Of a DNA stretch of 64,000 bases, positions 31,633 to 39,222 are shown in pieces; positions within the stretch are counted from its first letter, which is position 1; every line of letters starts with the position of its first letter. The notes below the pieces were generated by a model that saw nothing but the letters and a program-made list of their open reading frames with translations, searched no databases and was not told the DNA's origin. The stretch is from Bradymonadia bacterium (lineage in GTDB: Bacteria > Myxococcota_A > Bradymonadia > UBA7976 > UBA1532): NCBI GenBank assembly GCA_046290225.1, contig JBKAGE010000034.1, positions 480,001-544,000 on the forward strand, given 5' to 3'. Position numbers and translations under genes: made by a program.

Positions 31633-32298
31633 ATGCACACCACGGAGCAGCCCATGCCGCAGGATCCCCAGCCGACCTCCCAACTCGATCAACTGATTCG
31701 CTACGAAGTGAACCGCGTGCTGCGCTACCCGGCGCCCACCCCACTCGCTCGATGTGATCTCTACGCCTATGCCCAGCTCGGGCTGCTCGAAGCCCGGCAC
31801 AGGTACCAGGTCAGTCGAGGCCCCTTTGGCCCCTATGCTCAGCGATGGATCAGGGGCACCCTCATGCAAGGCCTTCGGTCTCACAGCCCCATCAGCAGAC
31901 GGGCGGCAGAGCGCTTGGGTCGGGAGAGCGAAGCGCTCAGCGCATCGGACAGCGCGCTGGCGTGGCAAAACCACCTCGCTCAGATCGGCGAAGCGGTCAC
32001 CGCTCAGGCTTCAGGGGCTGATCCCGAAACAGCCTTGGAGCAGGCCCAGTTGATGCAGCGCCTGAGATCAGCTTTGGGTCAACTGCCCGAAGAAGAGCGA
32101 GAGGTGATCGAAGCGATCTACGACCTGCATCAGACTGGAGACTCTGGGGCTGCTTGGGGGCGCCGCAAGGGGTTGAGTCGCTCCGCGGTGAGCCGTCGGC
32201 ACCACAGGGCCCTCGGGCGGCTCGCTCACGCCATCGAGGCCCCTCGCCGGCTCAGAGGCTGTCGTCCCCCTTGCCGATCCGGTGTCGGGGATCGCTGA
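31633..32298 (+). CDS. Sigma-70 family factor, FliA/WhiG-like, divergent
   Basis: Region 2 (DL..AQLGLLEARHRY..FGPYAQRWIRG) and region 4 (ALGQLPEEEREVI..LSRSAVSRRHHRALGRL). Start uncertain. Confidence 0.7.
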   Translation: MHTTEQPMPQDPQPTSQLDQLIRYEVNRVLRYPAPTPLARCDLYAYAQLGLLEARHRYQVSRGPFGPYAQRWIRGTLMQGLRSHSPISRRAAERLGRESEALSASDSALAWQNHLAQIGEAVTAQASGADPETALEQAQLMQRLRSALGQLPEEEREVIEAIYDLHQTGDSGAAWGRRKGLSRSAVSRRHHRALGRLAHAIEAPRRLRGCRPPCRSGVGDR

Positions 32299-34669
32299 GG
32301 GCCTCGGGCATGTCGCTGGTCTCCGTGTCCACCTGGGGCCACACAGAGCCCGAGAGGCTGCCGGAGTCATCTTCCCGGATGTTCTTGAGCACCTGAGAGA
32401 AGGTCTTCTTCGACAACGCCGGATCGTCCAGCGCCGCATCAGGCCGGGGGGCTTCCTTCACCTCGGCGGTGGGCCCTCGATCCGAGGACGGGTTGGGCAT
32501 GCCCTCGGTGAGATCGTCCTCGTCATCCTCTGGCAACCGACCAAGGGCGAGCCTCAAGGCGTCGTCATCGATGACGTCGTGCACAGTGGTGGGGGCCAGC
32601 TCGTTGCCCACCTTGGCGATTTGCATGGTGCCCGCCATCGAGGCCGGATCGATGGAAGCGTCCCCTTCGATGACGATGGGCCCTGTAGGCCTCAGCGCGC
32701 CGACGATGGGTCTCACGGCCGTGGTGCGGCTCAGGCTGACTTCTTCTTCGGGTACAGGTTCTTCGGGTACAGGGGTCGGCGCTGGTGTCGCCGCCTTCTC
32801 TTCTGAGGGCGGCGAGGAAGCGTTGTTCTCAGCATCTTGAGGACGCGTGGCGCCCCGTCGGCGGCGGGAGACTGGCACCGTAGTGGGGGCCAGCGAGTCT
32901 CCAGCACCCACCTCGTCCACGCGCCCCGCGGATGTCTCTATGGACTCGCTCGAGCCATCGTGAGAGGCATCGGAGTCGTCTCCTGCGCTCAGAGCGGCCA
33001 GCCCTTGGGGCAGAGCAGCCCGGCTTGAGGGCGTGATGTCAGAAGACTGAGATCCGTCAGAGGAGGCATCGGCAAGATCCTGCCCGCTGCGGCGATCCGT
33101 CTTGGCGACCTCTGTGTCGTGTACGCTGTCGATGCTGCCCATGCTGGGGTCGTATTGCACCATGATGCTGTCGGCATCATCGGCATCCTGGTCGCCGCTC
33201 TCGTCCGCCCTCAGATCCGAACTGGGGCGAGCGCCCGAGTCACTCGGCAAGGGCCGACCCACCATGGGCATGTCGTCCATGGAGTCGTGCACGCTGCCGG
33301 GGATCTCTGGTGCAATCGACGCGCTGCCGTTGGGGAAGTCGGCCTCTGAGCCTGTGGGCGTCGGCGGACCCAGAGAAGGCGTCATCACCGGGCCGAGCAG
33401 ATCGTCGGGGATGTCGGGGATGGGCACCTGGGCAGTCGGCTGCTCGACGTCGCGGGTGTTCACGCGAGGGGTGGATGGCTGAGCCACCGTCTGAGCACTG
33501 GGGCTCGCGATGGCGCCCGGGTCGGCGGGGGCATCCTCAATGAGGGAAGACAGCCCTCTGGCCTCACTCAACATGCTGGCCATGGGCGGCCCATTCAGCG
33601 TCGCGGGCCCCCCCGGCATCTGCGGCACCACTGCAGGTTGAGCGGCCTGGCTGGAGATCTGACGCCCAGTCCACTCTGCCTCCAGAGCAGCGGCGTGTGG
33701 CGTGGCGACGAGCTGACCGCTCACGCCGCCCTGCCAGCTGAACGCCAGCTCCACGGACACCTGACCTTCGTGGCACCTGACGCTGTGCACCTCACGGACG
33801 CGCTGGTCCTGACCGAGGACGAGGGTGATGTCGAGGCCAGCGCCCAAAAGCCCGGCGACGGCGCGATCTCGCGGCGCGGTGGCCGCGGCCCGGGCCAGAG
33901 CCTCGAGCCGTGCGAGGGCGTCACCAGAGGTGGCCCCCGGGAGCGCTACGGCCATGGGGGCCATGCGCTCGGCGAGGAGCGAGACGACATCCCAGGCGTC
34001 TGCCCGCTTGACCTCGTTGAGGCACACTCGATCAGCCGACATGCGCCCTGCGCAGTACAGCAGCTCTCCGGTGGTGACCCCACCATCACCCTCAACGCGT
34101 CTCGGCACGAGGCGGACCACTTCTCGCTCACCGAAATCGAGCTCGGGGAACTCCTCGACGACGACCACCCTGGCGATCTCCGGTAAGAGTGCGGTGATGG
34201 CCTCGAGCACTCTGGCTCGCCCGGTGGCCGCGGGCCCCACGACGGCGATGTTGAGGCCTCGATCGAGGGCTGCACGCAAAAACGGACGCAAGGGCTGGGG
34301 CAGCAGGCGAGCGAGGGTGAGGGTCGGCTCTCCCCCACCGCCACTGGGCCGCGTGATGGAGAGCAGCGGCCCGCCCTTCACCGCAGGCGGACGAATGGCG
34401 AGAAATCGGGTGCCATCTTTGAGCAGGGCTTCGAGATACGGGCGCTGCTCATCGAAGGGCTTGCGGGCCCGACGGGCGAGGCCGTCGAGGCTGTCGCTCA
34501 GCGCCCGACTGCTGTAGTGCACCGGTGCGCGGACCACCCGACCCTCACGCTCGACAAAGACCCGATCGGCGCCATCGACCAGAATCTTGCTCACCTGCTC
34601 GTCTCGAAGCAGGGCGTCGAGGGGGGCGAACAATCGCAGCAGGGGCGCGGGGATGGCCGCCACAGGCAT
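32252..34669 (-). CDS. CpaF/TadA/VirB11-like ATPase, catalytically degenerate, with long acidic disordered tail
   Basis: LLRDEQVSKILVDGADRVFVEREG and P..EALLKDGTR. Walker A position reads GPAATGRA and Walker B reads DRVCLNEV. Confidence 0.75.
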   Translation of the reverse strand: MPVAAIPAPLLRLFAPLDALLRDEQVSKILVDGADRVFVEREGRVVRAPVHYSSRALSDSLDGLARRARKPFDEQRPYLEALLKDGTRFLAIRPPAVKGGPLLSITRPSGGGGEPTLTLARLLPQPLRPFLRAALDRGLNIAVVGPAATGRARVLEAITALLPEIARVVVVEEFPELDFGEREVVRLVPRRVEGDGGVTTGELLYCAGRMSADRVCLNEVKRADAWDVVSLLAERMAPMAVALPGATSGDALARLEALARAAATAPRDRAVAGLLGAGLDITLVLGQDQRVREVHSVRCHEGQVSVELAFSWQGGVSGQLVATPHAAALEAEWTGRQISSQAAQPAVVPQMPGGPATLNGPPMASMLSEARGLSSLIEDAPADPGAIASPSAQTVAQPSTPRVNTRDVEQPTAQVPIPDIPDDLLGPVMTPSLGPPTPTGSEADFPNGSASIAPEIPGSVHDSMDDMPMVGRPLPSDSGARPSSDLRADESGDQDADDADSIMVQYDPSMGSIDSVHDTEVAKTDRRSGQDLADASSDGSQSSDITPSSRAALPQGLAALSAGDDSDASHDGSSESIETSAGRVDEVGAGDSLAPTTVPVSRRRRGATRPQDAENNASSPPSEEKAATPAPTPVPEEPVPEEEVSLSRTTAVRPIVGALRPTGPIVIEGDASIDPASMAGTMQIAKVGNELAPTTVHDVIDDDALRLALGRLPEDDEDDLTEGMPNPSSDRGPTAEVKEAPRPDAALDDPALSKKTFSQVLKNIREDDSGSLSGSVWPQVDTETSDMPEALSDPRHRIGKGDDSL

Positions 34670-34929
34670 GTCTCCGTAAGATTAAGCGATGATGGATTGC
34701 ACCCATGGCGCGACCACAGGCATCCCCATCGAATGGTGGGTCGTGAGCATAAAGGAGCCCGTTCCTGCTGTGCAATCGACCCGTTGACCGTGACGGCAGA
34801 ACGGCGTGTTTGACAGGCTGCCCCAACTTTGGGCATCAATATCGACTTGCGCCGAACATGGACCGGTACATTGACCTCTACAGCGTCGGCATGTTAGCCA
34901 TCCCACGCTGAAACGGTGAGTGGGCTTTG

Positions 34930-35484
34930 ATGCAGCGATTCTCCCTGTTGCTGGTGTTGTGCGTGATCCCCCTGGGGTTCGCTGCGCCTGCTTTTGCGGA
35001 GATCGGCACATGCATCACCGCCAACGGGGTCCCCGTCTCACCCTGGTCCGACGCTCAAGACCCGGCCTGTGGCGCCGATTGTGGCGCTGAAGGGGTGGTC
35101 TACGAGTTCCCCCCAGCAGAGTTCCTCGACGTCCCTCCAGAAGCGACCCCCTGTGAAGACGAAGAGATCGGCGTGTGCACGCTCGCCGATCAGGCCCTGC
35201 CTCCGCTCTCGGCCCTCGTGCCGTCGAAGGTGGCATATGATCCGCCTGCTGATCAGGACGGACCACGGTGCCTTTACGATGGCCCAGAGTGCCAGCCCGC
35301 GGCACCCTTCCCCGCACAACTTCGGCTGGCCATGAGCGACATCGCTCCGGGTGGCCACGTGGCATCGGCCTCTGTGGGCCGACCCAAGCCCCCCGGGCGT
35401 CTGCCCGCTGTCGCAGGCTTCGCTGCGCCCCCCACTCACACGCCCTGGCTGGCGATCCCCGAGTCTCCCCCTCCACGGGTCTGA
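34930..35484 (+). CDS. Secreted Cys-rich protein with C-terminal Pro motif; candidate CutF-like regulatory leader
   Basis: Signal peptide (..APAFA), 7 Cys in the mature part including CxxxC, ends IPESPPPRV. A TTGACC promoter-like element lies at 34871. Confidence 0.6.
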   Translation: MQRFSLLLVLCVIPLGFAAPAFAEIGTCITANGVPVSPWSDAQDPACGADCGAEGVVYEFPPAEFLDVPPEATPCEDEEIGVCTLADQALPPLSALVPSKVAYDPPADQDGPRCLYDGPECQPAAPFPAQLRLAMSDIAPGGHVASASVGRPKPPGRLPAVAGFAAPPTHTPWLAIPESPPPRV

Positions 35485-35496
35485 TCCACATCTGCA

Positions 35497-35666
35497 CATG
35501 CTCTCGTGGTCCATGGTGACCTCGGAGAGAGAGTTGATGGCGAGGTGTCGGCGGCGTGGTCCGCTCGACGCCGTGAGTAATTCTGTACCAAATTCAGATA
35601 TCCAAACCGCGCCTGCCCGACGTACGGGTGGCGTGCATCAGTGCCTTTGAAAGGGCCATAGAGATG
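35497..35666 (+). promoter_or_regulatory. Predicted mRNA helix sequestering the SD and AUG of the multi-DsbA gene
   Basis: CATGCTCTCGTGGTCC (35497-35512) is complementary to GGGCCATAGAGATG (35653-35666), 14 pairs with 2 single bulges, paired by hand. Confidence 0.45.
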
Positions 35667-38297
35667 AAAAAAGAAGTAGTGATCCTCGGCTTCGTGGTGA
35701 TCGCCGCCGCGGCCTTCGGCATCAGCCGTATGACCGCCAGCGACGACGCCCCCGAGACGAACAAGAAGCAGGTGGCCGACACCGCCAAGCCTGCTGACAA
35801 GGCCAACGCCGACAAGGGCGGCGCCAAGGCCCCCGCTGCAGGCAACGCCGCCAAGGCCGTGGCCAAGGGCGGCGACGCCGGCAACAAGATCCCCGTGGGC
35901 ACCAGCTACGGCAAGGGCGGCAACGCCGAAGAGGCCCTCGTGACCATCGTGGAGTTCTCGGACTTCCAATGCCCCTTCTGCTCCCGCGTCAACCCCACGC
36001 TCAAGCAGATCGACGAGACCTACGGCAAGAAGGTCCGCGTGGTCTTCAAGCACAACCCCCTGCCCTTCCACAAGGACGCCCCCCTGGCCTCCGAGGCCGC
36101 CCTCGCCGCCGGTGAGCAGGGCAAGTTCTGGGAGATGCACGACAAGCTCTTTCAGAACCAGAAGGCTCTCAAGCGTCCCGAGCTGGAGAAGTACGCCAGC
36201 GAGCTGGGCCTCGACATGGACAAGTTCAAGTCCGCCCTCGACGGCGGCAAGTTCAAGAAGGCCGTCGCCGACGACATGGCCCTCGCCAGCAAGGTGGGCG
36301 CCCGTGGTACCCCCAACTTCTTCGTCAACGGTGTGCAGATCACCGGCGCCCGCCCCTTCCCCAGCTTCAAGGAGGTCATCGATGCCGAGCTGAAGAAGGC
36401 TGAGGAGATGGCCAAGGCCGGCAAGACCCCTGCCGAGATCTACACCGCCATGGTGAACAAGAACTGGAAGGCCCCCGCCCCCCGCAAGGCCAACCCCAAG
36501 GCCGACGACAAGAGCATCTACAAGGTGCCCGTGGGCGCCAGCTACGCCAAGGGCCCCGCGGACGCTCAGGTCACCATCGTGGAGTTCTCCGAGTTCCAAT
36601 GCCCCTTCTGCTCCCGCGTCAACCCCACCATGGCCAAGATCCAGCAGGAGTACGGAGACAAGGTCCGCATCGTCTTCAAGCACAACCCCCTGCCCTTCCA
36701 CAAGGACGCCTTCCCCGCCGCCCTGGCCTCCGAGGCCGCTGGCAAGCAGGGCAAGTTCTGGGAGATGCACGACAAGCTCTTCGCCAACCAGAAGGCCCTC
36801 AAGGCCGACAACCTGAACGCCTACGCCACCGAGCTGGGCCTCGACATGGGCAAGTTCAAGGCTGACATGGCCGACAAGACCCTCGAGGCCAAGGTGAAGG
36901 CCGACATGGCCCTCGCCCAGCAGATCGGCGCCCGGGGCACCCCCAACATGTTCATCAACGGCCGCAAGGTCGTGGGCGCCAAGCCCTTCCCCGCCTTCAA
37001 GACCATCATCGACGAAGAGGTGAAGAAGGCCGACAAGCTGATCGCCGCCGGCACCGCCAAGGCTCAGGTCTACGCCAAGCTCACCGAGAAGGGCCTCACC
37101 AAGGCCGCCGCCCCTGCCCCCAAGAAGCGCGCCGAAGACAAGACCATCTACAAGGTCCCCGTCGTCGCCGACAGCTGCAAGGGCCCCGCTGACGCCCTGG
37201 TGACCATCGTGGAGTTCTCCGAGTTCCAATGCCCCTTCTGCAACAAGGTGCTCCCCACCCTGAAGCAGATCGAGAGCACCTACGGCAAGGACGTGCGCGT
37301 GTGCTTCAAGCACAACCCCCTGCCCTTCCACAAGGACGCCCCCCTGGCCAGCCAGGCCGCCATCGCCGCCGGCAAGCAGGGCAAGTTCTCCGAGATGCAC
37401 GACAAGCTCTTCGCCAACCAGCGCGCCCTCAAGGCCGACAACCTCCAGGCCTACGCCAAGGAGATCGGCCTCGACATGGCCAAGTTCAACGCCGATCTCA
37501 ACAGCGACGCGGTGAAGAACGTCATCAAGCAGGACCAGGCCCTCGCCACTCAGATCGGCGCCCGGGGCACCCCGAACTTCTTCATCAACGGCCGCAAGCT
37601 CGTGGGCGCTCAGCCCTTCGCCAGCTTCAAGGGCGTGATCGACGAGCAGAAGAAGGCCGCCGAGGCCCTCGTGGCCAAGGGCACCGCTCGCGCCAACGTG
37701 TACGCCGAGCTCACCAAGAACGGCGCCACCAAGGCTGCCGCCCCCGCCGGCCGCAAGGCCCCCGAGCCCGACAACAAGATCTACTCCGTGAAGGTGAACC
37801 CCGGCGACGCCATCAAGGGCAACAAGAACGCCAAGATCACCATCGTGGAGTTCTCGGACTTCCAATGCCCCTTCTGCTCCCGCGTCAACCCCACCATGGA
37901 CCAGATCCAGAAGGAGTACGGGGACAAGGTCCGCATCGTCTTCAAGCACAACCCCCTGGCCTTCCACAAGGACGCCCCCCTGGCCAGCCAGGCCGCCCTC
38001 GCCGCTGGCGAGCAGGGCAAGTTCTGGGAGATGCACGACATGCTCTTCGCCAACCAGCGCGCCCTCAAGCGCCCTGAGCTGGAGAAGTACGCCACCGAGC
38101 TGGGCCTGAACATGGACAAGTTCAAGTCCGCCCTCGACAGCGGCAAGTACAAGGCCCAGATCGACGCCGACATGGCCCAGGCCCGCGAGCTCGGCGCCCG
38201 TGGCACCCCCACCTTCTTCGTCAACGGCAAGAAGGTCCGTGGTGCTCAGCCCTTCGCCGCCTTCAAGACCGTCATCGACGAGGCGTTGAAGAAGTAA
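35664..38297 (+). CDS. Four-domain DsbA-family thiol:disulfide oxidoreductase
   Basis: N-terminal anchor or signal, then four repeats of TIVEFS(D/E)FQCPFC..FKHNPL..GTP. Strong codon bias. Confidence 0.93.
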   Translation: MKKEVVILGFVVIAAAAFGISRMTASDDAPETNKKQVADTAKPADKANADKGGAKAPAAGNAAKAVAKGGDAGNKIPVGTSYGKGGNAEEALVTIVEFSDFQCPFCSRVNPTLKQIDETYGKKVRVVFKHNPLPFHKDAPLASEAALAAGEQGKFWEMHDKLFQNQKALKRPELEKYASELGLDMDKFKSALDGGKFKKAVADDMALASKVGARGTPNFFVNGVQITGARPFPSFKEVIDAELKKAEEMAKAGKTPAEIYTAMVNKNWKAPAPRKANPKADDKSIYKVPVGASYAKGPADAQVTIVEFSEFQCPFCSRVNPTMAKIQQEYGDKVRIVFKHNPLPFHKDAFPAALASEAAGKQGKFWEMHDKLFANQKALKADNLNAYATELGLDMGKFKADMADKTLEAKVKADMALAQQIGARGTPNMFINGRKVVGAKPFPAFKTIIDEEVKKADKLIAAGTAKAQVYAKLTEKGLTKAAAPAPKKRAEDKTIYKVPVVADSCKGPADALVTIVEFSEFQCPFCNKVLPTLKQIESTYGKDVRVCFKHNPLPFHKDAPLASQAAIAAGKQGKFSEMHDKLFANQRALKADNLQAYAKEIGLDMAKFNADLNSDAVKNVIKQDQALATQIGARGTPNFFINGRKLVGAQPFASFKGVIDEQKKAAEALVAKGTARANVYAELTKNGATKAAAPAGRKAPEPDNKIYSVKVNPGDAIKGNKNAKITIVEFSDFQCPFCSRVNPTMDQIQKEYGDKVRIVFKHNPLAFHKDAPLASQAALAAGEQGKFWEMHDMLFANQRALKRPELEKYATELGLNMDKFKSALDSGKYKAQIDADMAQARELGARGTPTFFVNGKKVRGAQPFAAFKTVIDEALKK
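35943..38290 (+). repeat. Four tandem ~630-bp intragenic repeats
   Basis: ACCATCGTGGAGTTCTC recurs at 35943, 36573, 37203 and 37839. Confidence 0.9.
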
Positions 38298-38303
38298 GCT
38301 CCG

Positions 38304-38360
38304 GCGCTGCGGCTCTGTGGCCCGCCATCTGAGTGGCGATTTGGCGCACAGAGGCGGCGC
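38304..38360 (+). terminator. Long GC-rich hairpin after the multi-DsbA gene
   Basis: Nested arms GCGCTGC/GCGGCGC, CTCTGTG/CACAGAG and CGCCA/TGGCG. Weak U-tail. Confidence 0.4.
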
Positions 38361-38616
38361 TTCCCTCCTCGACGCAGCGCTGCTGCGCCTGCGGGTGAAT
38401 CACCACCCCTGCACACCAACTCACCCCTCAGCTGACGACCCCCAGAACCTCCGCGCCTCCGCGGGGCACGTGCGTGTGTGGGTTGTGGCTCTCTTGGGGT
38501 TGGGTTTCCTGACTTGTTTTCGCGAGATGCTCAGCCTGAGAGTGGTGACTTGATTGCTGATTTTTGTGCCTTCTGATACTCAGGAGCACCATCGGCATCT
38601 ACCAGTCTGATGCCAC

Positions 38617-39222
38617 GTGAAGGTGCCCACCATGTCGCGAAAAACCGCCTCGACCAGCCGGATCACCGAGATTGCGGTGGTCTTGGGCTCGATGCTCCTC
38701 ATCATCGGGCTGCTCAACCATCATTTGCAGGCTGCCGGGCCTCGGCCAGAGCTCGAGCTCATCGAGGCGTTCCCGGGTGCGCAGATCGCTGAAGGCCCCG
38801 CGCCGGATTTTGCTCTGGAGCGGGCCGATGGCAGCATCGTCACCCTCGAAGATCTCCGCGGGAAGGTCATCTTCCTGAACTTCTGGGCCACATGGTGCCC
38901 GCCGTGTCGCGAAGAGATGCCCGACATGGAGAAGCTCGCCCGCGACCTGCAGTTCGACCAGTTCGAGATGGTGGCCGTGAGCAGTGACGAGTCGTGGAAG
39001 GAGATCGACGACTATGCCCTGGGCTTCGAGGACAAGCTCGGGGGCATGACTGTGCTGCTCGACACCCAGAAGGCCCTCGCGGCAAAGTACGGCACTGAGA
39101 AGTTCCCCGAGACCTACATCATCGATCCCCAGGGTCGACTGCGCATGCGGTTCGTCAACAAGCAGCCCTGGACCCGCCCCGAGATCGCCACCTACCTGAA
39201 CTGGCTGGCCAACGGCGGATGA
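38617..39222 (+). CDS. TlpA/ResA-family disulfide reductase
   Basis: TM anchor, APDFAL, FLNFWATWCPPCREEMP and FPETYIID. Confidence 0.92.
   Translation: MKVPTMSRKTASTSRITEIAVVLGSMLLIIGLLNHHLQAAGPRPELELIEAFPGAQIAEGPAPDFALERADGSIVTLEDLRGKVIFLNFWATWCPPCREEMPDMEKLARDLQFDQFEMVAVSSDESWKEIDDYALGFEDKLGGMTVLLDTQKALAAKYGTEKFPETYIIDPQGRLRMRFVNKQPWTRPEIATYLNWLANGG

Follow-up and report, generated by a model that had tools for sequence, protein, structure and literature searches.

A predicted secreted, Cys- and Pro-rich ORF of 184 codons (nt 34930–35484, plus strand) lies directly ahead of the gene for a multi-domain DsbA/ScsC-like enzyme in the 64,000 nt stretch of DNA analysed here (the window). Compared with its homologues, the ORF is real and conserved, and it is very probably a dedicated leader, widespread and built like a force-sensing arrest peptide. 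The best explanation, which we hold with slightly more belief than doubt, is that it is an arrest leader that monitors disulfide formation and sets the level of the DsbA. Rather less secure, with doubt just outweighing belief, is the specific idea that the multi-domain DsbA itself draws the leader out of the ribosome and so shuts down its own synthesis, which would make the leader a natural oxidative-folding monitor with a new motif, [R/P]PPR.

In the mechanism proposed here, the leader would act in cis as an exported ribosome-arrest peptide: it would follow how disulfides are handled in the periplasm and adjust the amount of the enzyme encoded on the same mRNA. The ribosome would pause at the prolines, with the chain in SecYEG, as the last Cys pair reaches the periplasm; once the pair is oxidised, or a Dsb enzyme captures a free Cys, the chain would be pulled and the pause would end. 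Weak oxidation or isomerisation would lengthen the pause and raise dsbA output, which is also the direction of the response in CutF and CruR. The likelier output steps are Rho protection, known from CruR, and an indirect switch between helices of the intergenic RNA. We infer the stalling, its signal and its output step from sequence.

The leader ORF and its linkage to dsbA

The features listed for this ORF in the initial annotation (184 aa, 7 mature Cys, CGADC, a Cys-free tail of 63 residues and the C-terminus IPESPPPRV*) were all borne out. The mature Cys are C28, C47, C51, C75, C83, C114 and C121, and an eighth, C11, falls inside the signal region. A Sec-type signal peptide (residues 1–23, nt 34930–34998, plus strand) was likewise recognised, by eye, from a hydrophobic core and an AxA site (AFA ahead of E24), both kept in the alignment of homologues described below (A1). 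It is followed on the same strand by the Cys region from C28 to C121 (nt 35011–35292), delimited by conservation in homologues and closed by a GPxCx6C pair, by a spacer of fixed length but low identity (nt 35293–35466; 25% pairwise), and by PPPR (nt 35467–35478), the candidate arrest motif of the form [R/P]PPR.

The leader matches no Pfam or NCBIfam family, and its AlphaFold2 model (pLDDT 60, pTM 0.20) was discarded as giving no usable fold; every match in an Atlas structure comparison fell below TM 0.35. Its reading frame is the best of six on the genome codon model, but weakly so (2.5 over 184 codons), while the strongly codon-adapted dsbA gene scores 320 over 877 codons on the same model. 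Among 1132 small secreted ORF candidates in the whole genome, taken from our own gene calls with a hydrophobicity filter, two end in [RP]PPR, and of these only the window leader has a same-strand gene behind it.

From the dsbA side, relatives of the enzyme were located at 76 loci, in seven of which the upstream DNA was too short. Among the remaining 69, a secreted Cys ORF with a PP tail lies directly upstream in 26, and 43 have no leader. The latter include one- and two-domain paralogues, and their record titles include Myxococcaceae, Archangium, Corallococcus-type, Nannocystaceae and Anaeromyxobacteraceae. Since the 19 distant leaders in this set had been picked out by eye and for their PP tail, a choice that is in part circular, a search from the leader side was made too. 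Two protein searches (4 and 23 matches) provided the 22 aligned leaders of A1; P0009, being a long protein of repeats, was left out, as were P0022 and P0026, in which the C-terminus looks chimeric or shifted. Mean identity is 32%, and C28, C47, C51, C83, C114, C121, P181, P182 and R183 are invariant in all 22 sequences, as is an N-terminal motif within this family of leaders; no His or Met occurs among the invariant or near-invariant columns. The A1 profile found 20 of 113 genomes of the class, one copy each and all in the family of the window, and 15 of 401 genomes in a sample of the phylum, one of them spurious. The GPxCx6C pair is present at 25 of 26 loci of the window's family.

Two further leader types, A2 and A3, come from Polyangiales loci and have little similarity to A1; their profiles matched 30 and 78 of 201 genomes, respectively, in single copy (one of the 78 is unpublished), and four genomes in another family of the class carry a further, longer type. 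Starting from the leader, 26 of 27 A1 loci (L077–L103) lie directly before a multi-domain dsbA gene, and 29 of 30 fetched loci precede the enzyme gene for A2 and likewise for A3, the one A3 exception stopping at a contig edge. These locus counts include kin and overstate the number of independent events. The leader thus sits, in the sequences compared, almost only ahead of the multi-domain DsbA gene in myxobacteria and relatives. Candidates at L083, L187 and in G196 were rejected as weak, spurious matches. At L009 both leader and dsbA have apparent frameshifts, and in P0022 DsbA sequence follows a leader N-terminus; both cases look like errors of sequencing or assembly.

Leaders with unrelated N-termini carry the same [R/P]PPR tail within a few residues of the stop. 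The 96 distinct leader ends comprise 64 with RPPR, 23 with PPPR and 9 near variants, and in 70 of them the stop codon follows within two residues of PP. R[AG]PP is found in none of the 96 end tetrapeptides, so the motif differs from RAPP/RGPP. All four Pro codons and five Arg codons are used in the tail, and this free variation of synonymous codons argues that the peptide, not an RNA word, is what is conserved. Both leader and Pro tail, on whose conservation the initial annotation had made its reading depend, are conserved across three leader families. The lack of a fold, the poor codon adaptation and the loss of the leader in some relatives that keep synteny fit a regulator.

The gene behind the leader (nt 35664–38297, plus strand) encodes a predicted four-domain DsbA/ScsC-like thiol-disulfide oxidoreductase, as the initial annotation had it: four Thioredoxin_4/DSBA domains were confirmed, each with CPFC, together with GTP cis-Pro loops and an N-terminal hydrophobic anchor. 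The closest solved structures include actinobacterial-type DsbA, BdbD and ScsC entries. Trimeric ScsC and class II DsbA/BdbD, the closest solved relatives of these domains, share the CPxC site (PMC8900818, PMC11634996, as far as accessible), but here 3–7 predicted catalytic domains are fused in one chain. Chains with five and seven DsbA domains (1168 and 1679 codons; G110:C166 and G111:C5, loci L142 and L143) are both leaderless. Tandem multi-domain DsbA genes were seen at L013, L035 and L040 and at L030, L032, L047 and L057 (Nannocystaceae-titled and Polyangiales loci).

Downstream of dsbA lies a TlpA/AhpC-TSA-type thioredoxin gene (nt 38617–39222, plus strand), and the same family follows dsbA in 10 of 24 scanned leader loci. 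Recurrent neighbours of leader loci are TlpA-type genes, a second multi-domain DsbA and glutaredoxin-like genes. Of 68 neighbouring proteins extracted, 60 were scanned, and one is a copper protein, a multicopper oxidase; by their sequences, the neighbours are thiol-redox genes, not copper genes. The genome also encodes Rho, two EF-P matches, two DsbD-type proteins and a VKOR-DsbA fusion, and no DsbB was found in it. In the fusion, VKOR and a DsbA-like domain occupy one frame of 431 codons (G000:C35:502891-503997, minus strand; loci L104/L110); it is probably the primary oxidase. On the other side of the leader, a divergent gene of 805 aa (nt 32252–34669, minus strand) has a T2SSE/TadA-like ATPase region and, behind it, a long tail that is acidic and rich in Pro, and a similar gene flanks the locus in several relatives. 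A long hairpin (nt 38303–38363) follows the dsbA stop, without a clear U-tract.

Cysteine spacing and likeness to known arrest peptides

The distance between the last conserved Cys and PP is 54–56 residues in 24 of 25 loci of the window's family and 59 in the window; one further locus, which has no GPxCx6C motif, was left out of this count. The segment between the third and sixth Cys, which is equally divergent, ranges from 33 to 62 residues. In A3 leaders the distance is 54–57 residues at 30 of 30 loci, if an occasional extra Cys inside the spacer is ignored, and it is 56–57 in the four long leaders of the other family. The A2 (Polyangiaceae-type) spacer measures 62–68 residues and that of a small further group 82–92, so that the ruler distance is not universal. 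The path from the peptidyl transferase centre to the periplasm takes about 50 extended residues, and an engineered SecM stall is released by the DsbA-dependent folding of PhoA, according to the part of the source available to us (10.1101/2020.07.06.189464). With a spacer of 54–59 residues, the Cys pair would have only just come out into the periplasm by the time the ribosome is at the prolines. By our count, most A1, A3 and long leaders have an odd number of Cys (7, 5 or 3) up to the last pair, and A2 has two. As a speculation, the free thiol of an odd-Cys leader could catch a Dsb enzyme.

The nearest parallel is CutF of Rhodobacter capsulatus, which ends in PEPEGPPPRL and stalls at its prolines under EF-P control; its authors proposed release by disulfide formation (10.1101/2025.02.05.636593, accessible part). 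CutF and the window leader have in common a Sec signal, periplasmic Cys, a PPPR-hydrophobic-stop ending and the position of first gene before an envelope enzyme (PMC9973294). CutF, however, has 118 aa against 184, and its last Cys is about 40 residues from the prolines (our count from the published numbering) against about 55–59 here; furthermore, the leaders described here would target a thiol-disulfide enzyme, their CxxxC is not kept throughout and an SD stem-loop is unsupported. Against the rules given for CutF-like proteins in the accessible text of PMC9973294, the window leader has PP in the last 15 residues, a same-strand gene within 1000 nt and a predicted signal peptide, but at 184 aa exceeds the limit of <150 aa, which several Polyangiales leaders (121–136 aa) would satisfy. 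The stall-opened SD stem-loop of that rule set did not appear in equilibrium folding without pseudoknots. DUF2946 (Pfam PF11162) matched none of 22 A1 members and none of nine leaders from other clades, in a search whose positive control was weak, the genome's RAPP leader scoring 18.4 bits, below the cut-off. That leader is a His-rich secreted ORF (G000:C40:91617-92111, minus strand; locus L155) that ends in RAPP-x8, 66 nt before two lipoprotein-like genes. It is the only RAPP candidate of the genome under our own filter, and is likely to be a CruR-like metal leader.

CruR of Bordetella pertussis resembles the window leader as an exported Cys leader with a C-rich leader end and Rho present, and has an intergenic region of 162 nt, compared with 179 nt in the window; RAPP, CXXC, a copper import target and a dispensable signal peptide set it apart (PMC9426467, accessible part). 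By the tests run, the leaders described here would work like CutF and CruR but are not members of either group, having no DUF2946 and no RAPP/RGPP. Arrest leaders before DsbA and thioredoxin genes are already hinted at in print. Fujiwara et al. (2025) found RAPP/RGPP uORFs enriched before genes for DsbA-family and thioredoxin-domain proteins and suggested a functional link between arrest peptide and thioredoxin-fold gene (PMC12992588). For one of them, Streptomyces lividans SLIV_27375, arrest was demonstrated and regulation was not; like the leaders here it has a conserved Cys pair and precedes a thioredoxin-fold gene. It differs in having four transmembrane segments and in coming from a screen for RAPP/RGPP only, unlike the [R/P]PPR seen here, and the accessible portion of that paper reports neither a spacer rule nor a Myxococcota family. 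The statement in the initial annotation that no feedback loop of this kind is described for DsbA therefore holds in part: none turned up in the literature searched, but RAPP/RGPP uORFs before DsbA and thioredoxin-domain genes have been published (PMC12992588). A search of mostly open literature, in which the supplements of PMC9973294 and PMC12992588 may list members, returned no report of this leader family and no paper demonstrating natural nascent-chain feedback on a Dsb enzyme.

The likeness to CutF raises the alternative that the signal is copper or some other thiophilic metal, which by binding to the Cys would block the disulfide, prolong the stall and induce an ScsC-like isomerase against copper damage. 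CutF, which has the same tail, senses Cu via Cys (PMC9973294; 10.1101/2025.02.05.636593), and the ScsC entries among the structural relatives of the downstream domains point the same way, since the trimeric ScsC isomerase binds Cu and serves copper tolerance (PMC8900818, accessible part) and a 3–4-domain fusion could mimic its trimer. A CzcI cluster was also a lead (0.89) in the Atlas, and thiols by themselves can bind Cu(I). The CxxxC motif to which the initial annotation drew attention is present in the window (CGADC) and in 17 of 25 close homologues, but it is missing in the other 8 and in A2, so it seems not to be a defining feature. A2 leaders keep just two Cys, 26 residues apart, and no His or Met is conserved in A1 or present in the Cys region of the window leader. 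The single copper protein among 60 neighbours, and the failure of the leaders to match DUF2946 where the His-rich RAPP leader of the same genome matches weakly, also argue against a metal signal, which we consider unlikely. The two readings overlap, because in the CutF model copper works by blocking disulfides.

A second alternative is an export monitor, in which SecYEG/SecDF would pull on the chain as for SecM, or a device that parks the mRNA at the translocon for efficient insertion of the highly expressed DsbA, the Cys merely stabilising the released peptide. SecM, MifM, VemP, ApdA/ApdP and uA_LPPP share with the leaders here a localisation signal, a spacer, a C-terminal Pro motif and presumed feedback on the machinery by which the nascent chain is handled (PMC10987492), and Sec monitoring substrates in general are built from a signal peptide, a long spacer and a Pro tail (PMC12992588; PMC10987492). 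A positioning role would also suit a dsbA start that is open by default: opening takes 7.8 kcal/mol, against 12.9 kcal/mol in controls whose starts are our own predictions, dsbA having an A-rich start. A Sec monitor, on the other hand, has no need of a Cys pair placed at a constant distance from its prolines, and the leader is linked to dsbA, not to sec genes, which makes this reading distinctly improbable. The known Sec/YidC monitors act on translocation, whereas the leaders here are proposed to act on oxidative folding, and [R/P]PPR is not among the motifs given for their substrates in the accessible part of PMC10987492. Most RAPP-like motifs tested out of context in that study did not stall.

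Transcript, intergenic RNA and the output step

A putative sigma70-like promoter (TTGAC, 15–16 nt, TGnTA; nt 34871–34899, plus strand) was recognised before the leader as a conserved motif. The pattern TTGAC-N15/16-TGnTA occurs in this position at 20 of 26 loci, and a leave-one-out promoter matrix (score >=10) found it in 23 of 26 regions upstream of the leader and in none of the 26 leader-dsbA intergenic regions of the window's family; a strict consensus scan did not pick up the promoter at nt 34871–34899. In all four relatives that lack the leader but keep the neighbourhood, the motif lies 59–122 nt before dsbA. The leader therefore behaves like an insert between promoter and gene. On this sequence evidence leader and dsbA form one transcript, leader first, an arrangement shared in the window's family with the SecM class, and the separate dsbA promoter that the initial annotation had named among the things that would refute its model was not seen between the genes of that family, at least as one of the leader's type. 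The matrix recognised no promoters in Polyangiales or at the four loci of the other family, and fails for such distant clades. TATAAT-like words are visible in some intergenic regions of both. Two metatranscriptome runs of one study contained 8% and 5% of the words, and a contig of 204 nt maps to nt 34861–35064 with one difference, with short pieces in dsbA; no piece bridges leader and dsbA, and these data demonstrate neither transcription nor attenuation.

The intergenic region (nt 35485–35663, plus strand; 179 nt) is structured in folding calculations. According to the initial annotation, an arm at nt 35497–35512, which begins 13 nt past the leader stop, can pair with nt 35653–35666 and would hide the dsbA SD until a stalled ribosome melts the helix. 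The two arms can indeed pair (14 pairs, 2 bulges, −15.6 kcal/mol as a duplex), and an equally good partner for the dsbA start turned up in 11 of 500 shuffled intergenic regions, the duplex being better than the other 489. Its probability in the ensemble, by contrast, is 0.00–0.09 in five folding windows, and forcing it without a ribosome costs about 8 kcal/mol. The footprint of a ribosome at PPP does not reach the helix, whose probability is highest (0.45) with a ribosome at the stop and 0.00 without one, the wrong way round for an off switch. These are values from equilibrium, pseudoknot-free software, and the helix would cross, as a pseudoknot, the one between the arrest codons and nt 35524–35533. 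SD and AUG accessibility are the same with and without the ribosome (0.46 and 0.04), because a local hairpin at nt 35636–35666, which dominates the fold, covers the start in both states. Taken whole, the region folds no better than shuffles (z −0.54).

Ribosome position nevertheless changes the pairing of nt 35524–35533. Without a ribosome this segment pairs with the arrest codons (0.57), and with a ribosome on PPP it pairs with the arm at nt 35497–35512 instead (0.63); further hairpins were predicted at nt 35544–35572 and 35609–35634. When the 5' RNA is removed, the opening energy in the window falls by 1.7 kcal/mol in one calculation and by 2.7 kcal/mol in another, made for the SD alone (from 7.3 to 4.6 kcal/mol). 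This fall, the exchange of partners and the strength of the duplex favour the model of the initial annotation, but no such effect was found across homologues. With a stall simulated at 44 loci, the energy needed to open the start region shifted by +0.4 and +0.9 kcal/mol, compared with +0.2 in controls (p 0.34; 150 of 372 control pairs were used). Cognate pairs of leader end and dsbA start paired no better than mixed pairs, and pairing between arrest codons and intergenic RNA was weak (p 0.03 in one clade, 0.09–0.48 in others), although the intergenic regions have more structure than the controls do (mean z −1.7 and −1.4 vs −0.8). No counterpart of the two arms was found across homologues, and the 25 regions of the window's family proved unalignable (29% column identity), so that a shared intergenic RNA was rejected for this family. 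On ensemble probability, forced-fold cost and non-conservation, the helix was dropped as the off switch, and a stall that frees the dsbA SD by melting it is very improbable.

Covariation was seen in one clade of 22 A3 loci (A4, L190–L217), where three intergenic hairpins include 7 compensatory pairs, a number reached in none of 500 shuffles. One of these hairpins is excluded by a helix that joins the codons immediately ahead of PP to the intergenic RNA; this helix is 92.8% paired with 1 compensatory pair (7 of 500 shuffles), in a structure drawn by hand from the same sequences on which it is tested. In the same clade dsbA begins with 12 nt that are invariant at 22 of 22 loci, wobble positions included, and a U-rich run comes after a short covarying hairpin. 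A switch among helices that depends on ribosome position is plausible in A4 and in the window, and its output, in these calculations, is not SD opening.

The alternative output step is Rho termination, which performs this role in CruR (PMC9426467, accessible part). The gaps between leader and dsbA, 59–303 nt across loci, resemble the CruR arrangement, and a C-rich stretch over the leader end (nt 35428–35505, plus strand; C/G 2.7 in 78 nt) is a possible Rho-loading site. Its C-richness is due to the proline codons, and RNA-level selection for such a site was set aside after comparing third-position C (0.47 in the tail, 0.48 upstream). As the output step of the arrest leader, Rho termination or an indirect RNA switch appears likelier than the SD helix of the initial annotation.

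Significance of the leader-dsbA pair

That the ORF might be an ordinary small secreted partner or substrate of DsbA, co-transcribed and with an incidental proline tail, would agree with its operonic position and the N-terminal motif invariant within the family, but the absence of a fold, the same tail near the stop behind unrelated N-termini, the fixed spacer, the long gaps (59–303 nt) and the weak codon adaptation leave this reading a very small probability.

For an arrest leader that would monitor disulfide formation, the family is a clean test case: it has a single target, about 100 natural variants and a spacer of fixed length, its motif falls outside the RAPP screens, and relatives that lack the leader can serve as controls. 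In the force-sensing arrest leaders known so far, the process under feedback is translocation, membrane insertion or the handling of copper. If the DsbA does draw out its own leader, disulfide formation would join translocation and membrane insertion under nascent-chain feedback. The pairing with dsbA also points to this little-studied multi-domain Dsb protein as one of the main foldases of the envelope in myxobacteria and their relatives.
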